DNA from: a virus
Lineage: Duplodnaviria; Heunggongvirae; Uroviricota; Caudoviricetes
Strand: one strand, 5' to 3'
IMG/VR virus record: IMGVR_UViG_2579778748_000002
DNA length: 50,752 nucleotides
A program made the position numbers. This document shows positions 1-6,000 of the stretch, piece by piece; within the stretch, counting starts at the first letter, position 1, and every line of letters begins with the position of its first letter.

Positions 1-3000
1 TTACTTCTTCGCCTCTGCAACCACTTTGCTACCCACGCCGCGGTTATTGTATTCCCACATGCGGTTGTAGTTAGTGTCATTCAGATTGCGCTGTACTTCG
101 TCGTTATCATCAACGTTGCCAGTATTACCCGCAAACGGACGATTGGAAATCACCGCATCGGCCCACGGTTTCGCCGTGTTAAAACCTTCGTTGATGGCGC
201 TATCACGGATCACTACCTGACCGTTGGTATTGGCATCAACATCCAGCGAGCGGCCCAGTTGCGCCACGCCATCCCCGGAAGCATTGAAACGGCTGTTTAC
301 GGCGAGGAAACCGTAGTAAATGTTGGACAGCGTAGCCGGTGCAAACACATACGCTTCTTGCTGGGTACGGGAGTTCACCACGCGGAATTCGGTGTTATCG
401 AACACCACTGCGCCGCGACCAGAAACGATATCCACATCCCCTTCAATGTAGCTGTTAGTCACCAGGGTACGCGGCTGACGGTTGCTTTCCAGACGGTTTT
501 GCACACCGCTGTTGGTGACAAAGAAGGTATTCTGGCGACCGAGAATATTGACGTTATTGATCTGCACTTTGTCGCCATCAGTACGCAGTGCCACCGCCGG
601 ATGGTTACCCGCATCTACGCTATCGCCCAGTGTGTTTTCGATGGTCAGGTTTTGCAGTTGCAGGCCATTGTTTTGTGACCAGAAGACCGCAGAACAGAGC
701 ACGCCAATGCTGTCGCTGCGTTTGCTCTGGCAGCTATCGTACATATACCACGCTGGTTTACCCGGCATATATTTGCCGCGTGGGTTGACGTCGTGACGCC
801 AGTCGGCTGGGCTCATGCCCCCATCAAGGGAAAGCCCAATTTTCACATCAATCGGTTTTTCACCTGTACCGTACAGAGTAATTCCACCCGGAGCGGCAGG
901 GACATACACCGTTCCCTGATACTCACCAGGCATCACGGCAATATACTGGCGCTTGTTGGTACGCTTGATAATTGCCGCATCTACCGCCGCCTGAATCGTG
1001 GTATGCGTTACACCTTGAGTACCCGCCGGGCCGACAACAAAGTCAGGTTGTGCAGGCAGGGTAATCGGGGAAGGATTCCACGCTGCAGCACCTGGTGTCA
1101 GGGATGCAAAATAGTGTTGAGCATCGAAATTCTGCGCTTCTTTTGCCGACAGAATCGGGCGAGAAGAGGTACCAGGCGCGGTTTGATCAGAAGGACGTTG
1201 ATCGGGCGGTGTTGAGCTACAGGCGGTCAGCGTCACGCCAAAAGCCAATGCCAGCGCCAGACGGGAAACTGAAAATGTGTTCACAGGTTGCTCCGGGCTA
1301 TGAAATAGAAAAATGAATCCGTTGAAGCCTGCTTTTTTATACTAAGTTGGCATTATAAAAAAGCATTGCTTATCAATTTGTTGCAACGAACAGGTCACTA
1401 TCAGTCAAAATAAAATCATTATTTGATTTCAATTTTGTCCCACTCCCTGCCTCTGTCATCACGATACTGTGATGCCATGGTGTCCGACTTATGCCCGAGA
1501 AGATGTTGAGCAAACTTATCGCTTATCTGCTTCTCATAGAGTCTTGCAGACAAACTGCGCAACTCGTGAAAGGTAGGCGGATCCCCTTCGAAGGAAAGAC
1601 CTGATGCTTTTCGTGCGCGCATAAAATACCTTGATACTGTGCCGGATGAAAGCGGTTCACGACGAGTAGATGCAATTATGGTTTCTCCGTCAAGAATCTC
1701 TTTGCATTTATCAAGTGTTTCCTTCATTGATATTCCGAGAGCATCAACATGCAATGCTGTTGGGATGGCAATTTTTACGCCTGTTTTGCTTTGCTCGACA
1801 TAAAGATATCCATCTACGATATCAGACCACTTCATTTCGCATAAATCACCAACTCGTTGCCCGGTAACAACAGCCAGTTCCATTGCAAGTCTGAGCCAAC
1901 ATGGTGATGATTCTGCTGCTTGATAAATTTTCAGGTATTCGTCAGCCGTAAGTCTTGATCTCCTTACCTCTGATTTTGCTGCGCGAGTGGCAGCGACAGG
2001 GTTTGTTGTTATATGGCCTTCAGCTATTGCCTCTCGGAATGCATCGCTCAGTGTTGATCTGATTAACTTGGCTGACGCCGCCTTGCCCTCGTCTATGTAT
2101 CCATTGAGCATTGCCGCAATTTCTTTTGTGGTGATGTCTTCAAGTGGAGCATCAGGCAGCCCCCTCCTTATTGCTTTAATTTTGCTCATGTAATTTATGA
2201 GTGTCTTCTGCTTGATTCCTCTGCTGGCCAGGATTTTTTCGTAGCGATCAAGCCATGAATGTAACGTAACGGAATTATCACTGTTGATTCTCGCTGTCAG
2301 AGGCTTGTGTTTGTGTCCTGAAAATAACTCAATGTTGGCCTGTATGGCTTCAGTGATTGCGATTCGCCTGTCTCTGCCTAATCCAAACTCTTTACCCGTC
2401 CTTGGGTCCCTGTAGCAGTAATATCCATTGTTTCTTATATAAAGGTTAGGGGGTAAATCCCGGCGCTCATGACTTCGCCTTCTTCCCATTTCTGATCCTC
2501 TTCAAAAGGCTACCTGTTACTGGTCGATTTAAGTCAACCTTTACCGCTGATTCGTGGAACAGATATTCTCTTCCATCCTTAACCGGAGGAGGGAATATCC
2601 TGCATTCGCGCACCCATCGACGAACTGTTTCAAGGCTTCTTGGGCGTCGCTGGCGTGCGTTCCACTCCTGAAGTGTCAAGTACATCGCAAAGTCTCCGCA
2701 ATTACACGCAAGAAAAAACCGCCATCAGGCGGCTTGGTGTTCTTTCAGTTCTTCAATTCGAATATTGGTTATGTCTGCATGTGCTATCTGCGCCCATATC
2801 ATCCAGTGGTCGTAGCAGTCGTTGATGTTCTCCGCTTCGATAACTCTGTTGAATGGCTCTCCATTCCATTCTCCTGTGACTCGGAAGTGCATTTATCATC
2901 GCCATAAAACAAAACCCGCCGTAGCGAGTTCAGATAAAAGAAATCCTCGTCAGTGCGAGGATGCTGTTCATTGCTGCTATACACTTTTTTGCTCTCAACG

Positions 3001-6000
3001 TAAGCGGTAGCCCATTCTGTTGGGTTGGTGCAGTTGCTTTTAGGAAATGCTATTTACCCCTTAAATGTCGGCTGAAAGAGCTAAAATCCATGCAAAAAAT
3101 TTACGCAATTTTGTGTATTATTGTGCAGTAAGTAATGAGCTATTTTCTGCGCAAAAAATGGATGGTAAATTTGTCCGGGTCAGGAAAAATTTTATGGGCG
3201 CTAAACATGAAAAAAGATTCGTATCCTTATTTGATTTGCATGACAGTTTCAGGGCTGATCTTTATTTTCCTTTTCTTCTGGTGGCGGGCAGATATCTACA
3301 GGGTCACGTTTCTTAATCAGAGTATATCCCACTATTACATTCTGTTTAGCATGGGAATAGCTTTTCTGTTATCTCTGTTTTGGGTTAAGAAGGGGATAGT
3401 AAAACAAAGAGGCTGGAAGAGTCTGTCAGCATACCTTAAGGTTTATGCAGGGATGTGCATATTTGCAGGATTTTTTCTGATTATACCCCTTACGACACTA
3501 ACTTATTTTTTGCCTGGAGAGACATCGTCTTATGTTGCACCGTATCGGTATACTTCCGGTAGTTCAAAAAGTTGTTCTGGAGCTGAGGTGGATGACCCCG
3601 ATCTACATGAGAATATTCGCATTTGCTATCCGTATGGCAATTATGAGTACGATAATATTATCTATGTTGAAAAGAAAATTAATATATTAGGTGCGGTAGT
3701 GACATATGCACAGACCGCGCGTGATGATACTGAATGATATAGTATATAGCGGGCAAGTTTTAGTTAATTTATCGAGGTAATATAATTTACCTCGACTCGT
3801 TTGTTCTGGTATTAATATTTCGCTTTACGACCGATTTTTATCTGATGATATCATGCGGTTTTCATATACTGACTTACTGTCTTTTCTCCGTTAGCGATTT
3901 TCTCCTGCTCAGCGATGATTTTATCTTTGGCTTCTAGTTAATTTCGCTCACTTCGAACCTCTCTGTTTACTGATAAGCTCCAGATCCTCCTGGCAACTTG
4001 CACAAGTCCGACAACCCTGAACGACCAGGCGTCTTCGTTCATCTATCGGATCGCCACACTCACAACAATGAGTGGCAGATATAGCCTGGTGGTTCAGGCG
4101 GCGCATTTTTATTGCTGTGTTGCGCTGTAATTCTTCAATTTCTGATGCTGAATCAATGATGTCTGCCATCTTCCATTAATCCCTGAATTGTTGGTTAATA
4201 CGCTTGAGGGTGAATGCGAATAATAAAAAAGGAGCCTGTAGCTCCCTGATGATTTTGCTTTTCATGTTCATCGTTCCTTAAAGACGCCGTTTAACATGCC
4301 GATTGCCAGGCTTAAATGAGTCGGTGTGAATCCCATCAGCGTTACCGTTTCGCGGTGCTTCTTCAGTACGCTACGGCAAATGTCATCGACGTTTTTATCC
4401 GGAAACTGCTGTCTGGCTTTTTTGATTTCAGAATTAGCCTGACGGGCAATGCTGCGAAGGGCGTTTTCCTGCTGAGGTGTCATTGAACAAGTCCCATGTC
4501 GGCAAGCATAAGCACACAGAATATGAAGCCCGCTGCCAGAAAAATGCATTCCGTGGTTGTCATACCTGGTCTCTCTCATCTGCTTCTGCTTTCGCCACCA
4601 TCATTTCCAGCTTTTGTGAAAGGGATGCGGCTAACGTATGAAATTCTTCGTCTGTTTCTACTGGTATTGGCACAAACCTGACTCCAATTTGAGCGAGGCT
4701 ATGTGCCATCTCGATACTCGTTCTTAACTCAACGGGAGATGCTTTGTGCATACAGCTCCCCGTTTATTATTTATCTCCTCAGCCAGCCGCTGTGCTTTCA
4801 GGGGATTTCGGATAACAGAAAGGCCGGGAAATACCCAGCCTCGCTTCGTAACGGAGTAGACGAAAGTGATCGTGCCTACGCGGATATTATCGTGAGGATG
4901 TTTCATCGCCATTGCTCCCCAAATACAAAACCAATTTCAGCCAGTGCCTCGTCCATTTTTTCGATGAACTCCGGCACCATCTCGTCAAAACTCGCTATAT
5001 ACTTTTCATTCCGCTCAATCACGACATAATGCAGGCCTTCACGCTTCATGCGCGGGTCATAGTTGGCAAAGTACCAGGCATCTTTTCGCGTCACCCACAT
5101 GCTGTACTGCACCTGGGCCATGTAAGCCGACTTTATGGCCTCGAAACCACCGAGCCGGAATTTCATGAAATCCCGGGAGGTAAACGGGCATTTCAGCTCA
5201 AGGCCATTGCCGTCACTGCATAAACCATCGGGAGAGCAGGCGGTGCGCATACTTTCGTCGCGATAGATGATCGGGGATTCAATAACATTTACGCCGGAAG
5301 TGAACTCAAACAGAGTTCTGGCGTCGTTCTCGTACTGTTTTCCCCATGCCAGCGCCTTAGCATTAACTTCCGGAGCCACACCGGTGCAAACCTCAGCCAG
5401 CAGGGTGTGGAAGTAGGACATTTTCATGTCAGGCCACTTCTTTCCTGAGCGGGGCTTGGCTATCACGTTGTGAACTTCTGAAGCGGTGATGACGCCGAGC
5501 CGTAATTTGTGCCATGCATCATCCCCCTGTTCGACAGCTCTCACGTCGATCCCGGTACGCTGCAGGATAATGTCCGGTGTCATGCTGCCACCTTCTGCTC
5601 AGTGGCTTTCTGTTTCAGGAATCCAAGAGCTTTCACTGCTTCGGCCTGTGTCAGTTCTGACGATGCGCGAATGTCGCGGCGAAATATCTGGGAACAGAGC
5701 GGCAATAAGTCGTCATTCCATGTTTTATCCAGGGCGATCAGCAGAGTGTTAATCTCCTGCATGGTTTCATCGTTAACCGGAGTGATGTCGCGTTCCGGCT
5801 GACGTTCTGCAGTGTATGCGGTATTTTCGACAATGCGCTCGGCTTCATCCTTGTCATAGATACCAGCAAATCCGAAGGCGAGACGGGCACACTGAATCAT
5901 GGCTTTATGCCGTAACATCCGTTTGGGATGCGACTGCCACGGCCCCGTGATTTCTCTGCCTTCGCGGGTTTTGAATGGTTCGCGGCGGCATTCATCCATC

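Follow-up and report, generated by a model that had tools for sequence, protein, structure and literature searches.

The 50,752-nucleotide stretch analyzed here in full (the window; IMG/VR virus record IMGVR_UViG_2579778748_000002) opens at its 5' end with Escherichia coli ybhC (positions 1 to 1284, minus strand), followed by a lambda-like prophage at the lambda attachment site, and this report concerns a plus-strand gene for a small membrane protein located between xis and the orf61-orf63-orf60a-exo block of that prophage (Table 1). Comparison with lambda by blastn revealed 98 to 99% identity on either side of the gene, with window positions 1331 to 2962 corresponding to lambda 27724 to 29355 and homology resuming at position 3936 (lambda 30380; aligned over 3936 to 4998). 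The segment in between substitutes for ea8.5 and ea22, which occupy the corresponding position in lambda, and it is poorer in GC (38.1%) than the flanking stretches 2686 to 2962 (46.6%) and 3936 to 5583 (49.1%). The alignment and the base composition bear out a preliminary description of this DNA insofar as it placed here, instead of ea8.5 and ea22, an AT-rich segment with a membrane-protein gene opposite to the pL operon; the accessory island that it had drawn from 2686 to 4267 is, however, substituted only over 2963 to 3935, the rest being homologous to lambda. The segment is not new sequence, as it is already present in phage 434, and the whole of 2686 to 4267 is 98.3 to 98.8% identical to phages mEp332, 2B8, and classical 434. 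Moreover, the 973-bp module was found in 916 of 5426 complete E. coli genomes (17%), chromosomal in every case, with examples including the defective prophage at ybhC of O157:H7 (Sakai Sp3 gene ECs_0804; EDL933_RS04195) and a decayed KplE1-like remnant adjoining torI. In these decayed prophages (O157 Sp3/CP-933K and the KplE1-like remnant), the membrane gene is still intact. Flanking repeats, sought as a signature of mobility, gave short matches only, which are probably due to chance.

The gene had been described as encoding a 200-amino-acid (aa) protein at 3135 to 3737, and a 200-codon open reading frame (ORF) with hydrophobic segments does occupy these positions on the plus strand. A search of 5.8 billion proteins retrieved close copies and, in addition, diverged homologues of 169 to 186 aa (42 to 78% identical) from E. 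coli, Salmonella, Enterobacter, Klebsiella, and Cedecea, and every match with an organism name belonged to the Enterobacteriaceae. In the alignment, all of these diverged homologues begin at the equivalent of Met25 of the window frame (MKKxSYP), and in the E. coli and Salmonella copies carried by P2-like prophages (hereafter P2-type copies), an in-frame TAA takes the position of the window's TTA a few codons before this start. No Shine-Dalgarno sequence precedes the ATG at 3135, both lambda-type differences in 3135 to 3206 would be nonsynonymous, and the leader from the mapped transcription start (see below) measures 79 nt to the ATG at 3207 and only 7 nt to that at 3135. Considering the common start of the homologues at Met25, the in-frame TAA of the P2-type copies, and the 7-nt leader before 3135, we prefer the shorter form: the gene most likely comprises 176 codons from 3207, not 200, and the extension is read as a lineage-specific open stretch of the leader. 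In the ribosome-profiling supplements of PMC4765031, the gene is not listed by coordinate.

Comparison with three lineages gave dN/dS values of 0.11 to 0.16, with synonymous sites near saturation, indicating that the protein is under strong purifying selection, and 30 alignment columns were invariant among 21 sequences. The family is narrow, as only 62 matches were returned by a profile search of 1.84 billion cluster representatives. No Pfam match (E up to 5, 21 family members) and no NCBIfam match were obtained for the membrane protein, while phrog_1416 (unknown function; E 7.1e-51, 90-position profile) covered only aa 113 to 200 of the 200-aa ORF and thus represents truncated gene calls or the C-terminal domain alone. 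Rather than a fragment of a housekeeping membrane protein, the product is a full-length member of a conserved family. It is hardly credible that the ORF is a functionless chance frame or a decayed fragment, a view that might draw on its labeling as a mere "hypothetical protein" in annotation sources, but that is contradicted by the dN/dS values at saturated synonymous sites, the invariant columns, a confident structure model, and a mapped start site; nor does base composition lend it support, as long ORFs are rarer in AT-rich DNA.

The own promoter that the preliminary description had assigned to this gene, at TGTGTATTAT (3112 to 3121, containing the hexamer TATTAT), coincides with a transcription start site mapped in another strain. 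In Cappable-seq data from uninduced O157:H7 EDL933, EDL933_RS04195 has a start site at genome position 892672 on the plus strand in seven of the eight conditions (PMC10469882, Table S5), namely, exponential phase in LB, M9, acid, and salt and stationary phase in LB, M9, and salt (PMC10469882). Its signal ranged from 2.0 to 16.4 and was at least equal to that of the neighboring ybhC start site in six of the eight conditions (PMC10469882, File 8), and it is the sole gene start site in the table between ybhC and the prophage lpxR-like gene (row 4255) (PMC10469882). EDL933 is identical to the window over 3067 to 3179, and 892672 maps to window position 3128, 7 nt after TATTAT. These data support a sigma-70-type promoter that, as transferred to the window by sequence identity, would fire at 3128 in uninduced cells; they also show the plus-strand gene to be transcribed in uninduced EDL933, where the prophage is defective. 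The label of a canonical extended -10 was not upheld, since the TG of TGTGTATTAT stands at -15/-13 and not at -15/-14 followed by one free base. A simple two-hexamer consensus scan did not report the -10 at 3116 to 3121, because no recognizable -35 accompanies it. The window sequence gives no hint of repressor control.

Three TTGTGCA-like direct repeats, preceded by an A-tract, overlap this promoter, with the -10 element straddling repeats 2 and 3 and the transcription start directly following repeat 3. Cleaner repeats are found in the P2-type copies L005, L023, and L024, whereas the lambda-type copy combines degenerate repeats with a better -10 (TATTAT versus CAGTAT or CACTAT); the array looks like a set of regulator-binding sites. 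Farther downstream, a conserved motif of the leader, TG(A/G)TAA(A/G/T)TT, lies ∼36 to 45 nt before the start codon and is present in all six diverged copies compared (including L005, L007, L016, L023, and L024), one of the six being a chromosomal Cedecea copy. As a candidate for the main promoter it was dropped, because the EDL933 tables show a clear start at 3128 and none at the motif (none near 3178), but it may act as a condition-specific second promoter or as a binding site. A structured 5' untranslated region (UTR) was not apparent, with 0 pairs in RNAalifold and a single-sequence z-score of +0.75, and Rfam gave no match in the region of interest, its lone match in the window being the lambda cIII thermoregulator. 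The EDL933 data also contain antisense start sites, one inside xis at 892121 on the plus strand (window ∼2577; five of the eight conditions) and two on the minus strand within the membrane-protein gene (892858 and 893192; few conditions).

The gene, its promoter, its leader, and a downstream hairpin are shared as one block with phages of another type. Window 3070 to 3827 forms a single alignment, at 76.5% identity, with positions 5864 to 6619 of L023, an E. coli P2-like prophage at the portal-gpA locus, and a Salmonella P2-like copy aligns over 3074 to 3705 (72%). The hairpin is predicted to serve as the terminator of the cassette; its tail is moderately T-rich, its fold z-score is -2.9 against shuffled sequence, and it is partly conserved in the E. 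coli P2-type copy, which differs by a compensatory A-T to G-C double change, a wobble pair, and a mismatch. Considering its own promoter, its own terminator-like hairpin, its deviant GC content, and its absence from lambda, the stretch from ∼3070 to 3827 appears to be a moron, that is, a mobile and self-contained unit inserted between xis and orf73 in opposition to the pL operon. The moron concept goes back to Juhala and Hendrix, with lambda bor and lom and HK97 gp15 as examples.

Table 1. Features of the membrane-protein locus and other annotated elements, in window coordinates
Feature	Position	Strand	Basis or remark
int	1419-2489	minus	
xis	2467-2685	minus	
Homologue of lambda lambdap35, 55 aa	2725-2892	minus	54/55 identical to lambda; phrog_676, 1.7e-39; in lambda-homologous flank
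Segment substituting lambda ea8.5 and ea22 (lambda 29356-30379)	2963-3935 (973 bp)		blastn versus lambda
Self-contained cassette (promoter, 5' UTR, CDS, hairpin) common to P2-like prophages	3070-3827	plus	blastn
Three TTGTGCA-like direct repeats, 10-bp period	3101-3107 (TTACGCA), 3111-3117 (TTGTGTA), 3121-3127 (TTGTGCA)	plus	Read from the sequence
-10 hexamer TATTAT	3116-3121	plus	Ends 7 nt before the mapped start site
Transcription start site G3128	3128	plus	Inferred for the window from identical EDL933 sequence
24-codon in-frame extension, probably 5' UTR	3135-3206	plus	Absent from all diverged homologues
Conserved 5' UTR motif TGGTAAATT, general form TGnTAAnTT	3163-3171	plus	Kept in 6/6 diverged loci compared
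Membrane-protein coding sequence (CDS), most likely 176 aa	3207-3737	plus	Homologues start at the equivalent of Met25
Terminator-like hairpin	3772-3795	plus	35 nt past the stop codon; nine-pair stem, then CTCGTTTGTT
orf73, 73-aa TraR/DksA-family zinc-finger protein, pL operon	3948-4169	minus	73/73 identical to lambda Orf73
Lambda cIII thermoregulator RNA element	6973-7031	minus	Rfam RF01804, 88.5 bits
SieB-family exclusion protein, 193 aa	8056-8637	plus	PF14163, E 2.5e-22; located in the leftward early region, the same placement as in lambda and P22

The protein was modeled with AlphaFold2 on 21 sequences (pLDDT 87, pTM 0.73), which yielded helices at residues 5 to 29, 38 to 61, and 70 to 101 followed by five strands; hydropathy agreed on three membrane helices, and the C-terminal 80 residues folded alone reached a pLDDT of 89. 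The polytopic membrane protein of the preliminary description is therefore retained for its three helices and corrected by the beta domain that follows them. The loop between helices 2 and 3 contains six K/R and no D/E residues, the C-terminal domain contains 6 K/R against 12 D/E (net charge -6), and two invariant cysteines sit at the ends of the second and third barrel strands. Based on the loop charge, the acidic C-terminal domain, and the two cysteines, the product is predicted to be an inner-membrane protein with its N terminus inside and its C terminus outside, and its C-terminal barrel (∼70 aa) is probably periplasmic, with a disulfide between the invariant cysteines. Columns conserved at 90% or more amounted to 30 of 68 in the C-terminal domain and 5 of 16 in the first loop, whereas the cytoplasmic loop had 2 such columns out of 18 and helix 2 had none out of 18, and this concentration in the C-terminal domain suggests that the functional face is probably directed toward the periplasm. 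Foldseek returned no match among viral structures at E up to 0.001, and a profile search against Protein Data Bank (PDB) sequences returned none either.

To place the family in its genomic context, the neighborhoods of the relatives were compared. Six diverged lineages (two from Salmonella and one each from E. coli, Enterobacter, Klebsiella, and a metagenome contig) have the homologue in P2-like prophages, in the interval from gpQ (portal) to gpA (replication), where it is the lone called gene in L005 and L023 and is accompanied by a small ORF or two in several others. In P2, the same locus is occupied by old/tin, and its role as an anti-phage hotspot has been validated (Rousset et al. 2022, PMC9122126). 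The catalogue of that study includes, as "System #4" of Table S5B, a Pfam-less "3 TM" protein with 470 occurrences and without notes (PMC9122126), to which the window protein is 51% identical over 168 aa (BLASTP, E 2e-56). Although the window copy does not lie between gpA and gpQ, this is no bar to family membership, as location defines the catalogue entry and not the protein family. Other homologues are found outside recognizable phages: that of Enterobacter mori lies directly downstream of a LysR regulator gene, and that of Klebsiella lies beside a bgl PTS operon. In the Enterobacter loci L013 to L015 (5085 to 6510), the homologue follows the LysR-family gene on the same strand with a 16-bp gap, an arrangement that suggests cotranscription with, or regulation by, the LysR gene.

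Taken together, the whole explanation that we tentatively favor, with confidence slightly below an even chance, is a moron cassette encoding a periplasm-facing inner-membrane protein for superinfection exclusion. The prophage would make the protein continuously in the lysogen, with its short first loop and acidic five-stranded barrel predicted to face the periplasm, and this conserved face would disturb infection by other phages at the envelope, most likely at the stage when DNA or ejection proteins cross the periplasm and inner membrane. In the lytic cycle, the cassette would be traversed in antisense by N-antiterminated transcription from pL. We infer exclusion from the occurrence of the gene in the accessory loci of two unrelated phage types (that of P2 being a validated hotspot), from the conserved periplasmic surface, and from the lack of a partner gene. 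The intact state of the gene in decayed prophages also counts in its favor. The preliminary description had named the protein as a candidate for superinfection exclusion or lysogenic conversion, and the hotspot location of the relatives and the conserved periplasmic face make such a role more plausible. That the protein acts at the envelope, most likely excluding superinfecting phages at the DNA entry step, is a proposal of about the same tentative standing or marginally weaker. A little more loosely still, the family may constitute a new type of single-protein exclusion or defense that works through a disulfide-stabilized barrel on the periplasmic side of the inner membrane and moves, complete with promoter and terminator, between lambda-like siphoviruses, P2-like myoviruses, and bacterial chromosomes.

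The same hotspot location would also fit an abortive-infection effector, which stays inert until infection and then permeabilizes the membrane, killing the cell before phage release, and small membrane proteins and membrane effectors are common in defense systems (PMC9122126). We consider such an effector improbable, because no sensor gene is associated with the cassette, which consisted of a single gene in every context examined, and because conservation of the helices is poor. With conservation centered on the predicted periplasmic domain, a binder that faces outward is a better match than a pore triggered from the cytoplasm, and constitutive transcription, together with presence in 17% of complete E. 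coli genomes and no sign of an antitoxin partner, likewise speaks against it.

Several observations weigh against superinfection exclusion. The sequence motifs of System #4 do not occur in any table of tested systems in PMC9122126, with no sign that the family was assayed there, and the P2 hotspot also contains nondefense cargo, as partition systems account for about one-quarter of the loci, along with some toxins (PMC9122126); location alone is therefore weak evidence for defense. No PADLOC-DB v2.0.0 system model matched the membrane protein (E up to 0.1), its similarity to P22 SieA was negligible (BLASTP E 12; hhalign probability, 0.1%), and the SieB model PF14163 did not match it. Prediction is also the basis for the topology, the disulfide, termination, and the use of Met25 as the translation start. 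Furthermore, the start-site data come from a defective prophage at ybhC that lacks pL and the cI/immunity region, not from an intact lysogen, so they point to a phage-independent and near-constitutive promoter rather than to expression in an intact lysogen. Finally, the homologues with 42 to 57% identity reside in ordinary chromosomal neighborhoods (Klebsiella, Enterobacter, and Cedecea) where the surrounding 6 kb is free of phage genes, and this setting fits a cellular envelope role equally well.

The last point leads to the main rival, a host-benefiting envelope factor (lysogenic conversion in the broad sense) whose barrel would act, by binding or modulation, on a host envelope component (for instance, a transporter, a porin, or a stress pathway) and give the lysogen a fitness advantage. 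The stable single-gene homologues in nonphage contexts of Enterobacter mori, Klebsiella, and Cedecea suit this role, as do the activity of the start site in nearly all growth conditions, the retention of the gene in defective prophages, and the nondefense cargo of the P2 hotspot. However, the protein has no likeness to known envelope-stress, transport, or modification families, its phage-borne copies occupy two prophage accessory loci, of which the P2 one is a validated defense hotspot (PMC9122126), and the chromosomal copies do not discriminate between the two roles, because defense genes also occur as chromosomal singletons. On balance, an envelope fitness factor is rather unlikely, though clearly less so than an abortive-infection effector, and superinfection exclusion is the reading tentatively retained here.

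The family is common, expressed, and catalogued while standing outside described families, and literature searches found no functional experiments on it, which also counts against exclusion. Its reach is nevertheless wide, covering 17% of complete E. coli genomes (O157:H7 included), phage 434, and the 470 occurrences in P2-like hotspots. If exclusion is true, phage 434 and about one-sixth of complete E. coli genomes carry an unrecognized anti-phage function, a compact, single-gene, periplasm-facing mechanism would be added to the repertoire, and there would be a bearing on phage-therapy host range and prophage competition; if it is not, a widespread envelope lysogenic-conversion factor deserves a phenotype.

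The second gene of the proposed island, that for the zinc-finger protein, was found to be lambda orf73. Its assignment to the TraR/DksA family stands (PF01258 zf-dskA_traR, 34.8 bits against a cutoff of 24.9; phrog_54, 7.8e-25), with a visible CxxC-17-CxxC motif (HCCECG...GCRTCASC), a score of 54.7 against the TraR subfamily model TIGR02419 that lies below the cutoff of 59.7, and the N terminus MADIIDS, D3, D6, and six cysteines as in lambda. Its membership in the replacement does not stand, for the gene lies in the lambda-homologous flank. When set beside lambda Orf73 and F-plasmid TraR, the window protein is the same as lambda Orf73, without difference, and so is not specific to this prophage. 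Lambda Orf73 is expressed from pL in lytic growth, inhibits rrnB P1 and rpsT P2 directly, and raises phage yield 3- to 4-fold; its binding to RNA polymerase (secondary channel) has been shown, and the roles of D3 and D6 have been studied (PMC9239242). On the alignment, the zinc-finger gene is a neighbor of the substituted module and a separate pL-operon gene, a correction that keeps a characterized lambda gene from being reported as novel cargo. A single accessory island, in which the membrane protein and the TraR-like protein together replace ea8.5 and ea22 and possibly cooperate, is accordingly very improbable and is already refuted as a structural claim: the two genes are adjacent, convergent, and 210 bp apart, but they belong to opposite transcription units, orf73 is carried by lambda without the membrane gene, and no TraR-like gene accompanies the P2-type or chromosomal membrane-gene copies in the loci examined. 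Since both Orf73 and the lambdap35 homologue lie in lambda-homologous sequence, all that is left of the island is a single plus-strand gene with the sequence around it.

A 56-codon ORF at 2961 to 3131 (plus strand), annotated as a "putative membrane protein" in 434 and mEp332, is probably no gene. In L022 (the KplE1-like remnant), a frameshift and several stops disrupt it although the 176-aa gene is intact, and both substitutions in the 434 and O157 copies are nonsynonymous; it also precedes the mapped start site and is not part of the block common to the P2-type copies. A cotranscribed small membrane protein was dropped as a candidate on account of the frameshift, the upstream position, and the absence from P2-type copies. 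Phage 434 (L001) has an extra insert of ∼436 bp at 2532 to 2967, between xis and the orf55 homologue (window ∼2713 to 2716), which encodes the 114-aa hypothetical protein CPT_434_33, and a hypothetical gene of equal length (345 bp) adjoins torI in L022.

Elsewhere in the window, a 299-aa ORF without a Pfam match (9405 to 10304, minus strand) lies beside a cI-like repressor gene (10434 to 11141), at the position of lambda rexA/rexB. The nin region contains, just past O and P of the replication module, a large cargo gene for an adhesin (13723 to 17274, plus strand), whose product is an intimin/invasin-family inverse autotransporter of 1183 aa (IAT_beta E 1e-100, five Big_1 repeats), and further apparent cargo consists of a lipocalin (Blc-like) gene (19596 to 20120, minus strand) and a 2-thiouracil desulfurase/DUF1722 gene (20313 to 21272, plus strand). 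The prophage already carries one recognized exclusion gene, as the SieB homologue demonstrates (Table 1).

Among known systems, the closest counterparts are 434 CPT_434_36, mEp332 XSB40999.1, and Sakai ECs_0804 (Sp3), which share ∼99% protein identity and the same position by int-xis with the window gene; owing to uncertainty about the start codon, the annotated lengths vary (188, 200, or 176 aa). The 434, 2B8, and mEp332 records label the gene only as hypothetical or "putative membrane protein." System #4 resembles the window protein in its three membrane helices, its occurrence as single-gene cargo, and the motifs SCSGAxVDDPDL, ICYPYGxY, and LGAVVTYA, but it occurs at the P2-like old/tin locus, whereas the window copy lies in a lambda-like prophage between xis and orf73. 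Small beta-barrel proteins anchored in the membrane, such as DUF1093/YxeA (PDB 3npp) and OB/cold-shock-like barrels, are also among the closest known systems. Inner-membrane exclusion proteins include P22 SieA, HK97 gp15, T4 Imm and Sp, and lactococcal Sie2009; such proteins are small, are made by the resident phage from their own promoter, expose a domain to the periplasm, and block the entry of incoming phage DNA. By sequence, the window protein is related to neither SieA nor SieB, and its likeness to proteins of the SieA type would be one of putative working mode and not of membership; P22 sieA also has its own annotated promoter. Finally, like lambdoid morons, the cassette combines its own promoter, one gene, a terminator-like hairpin, and a deviant GC content with transcription in the absence of prophage induction, and unlike them, it opposes the surrounding operon, replaces two genes instead of being a pure insertion, and occurs also in an unrelated phage type (P2-like).

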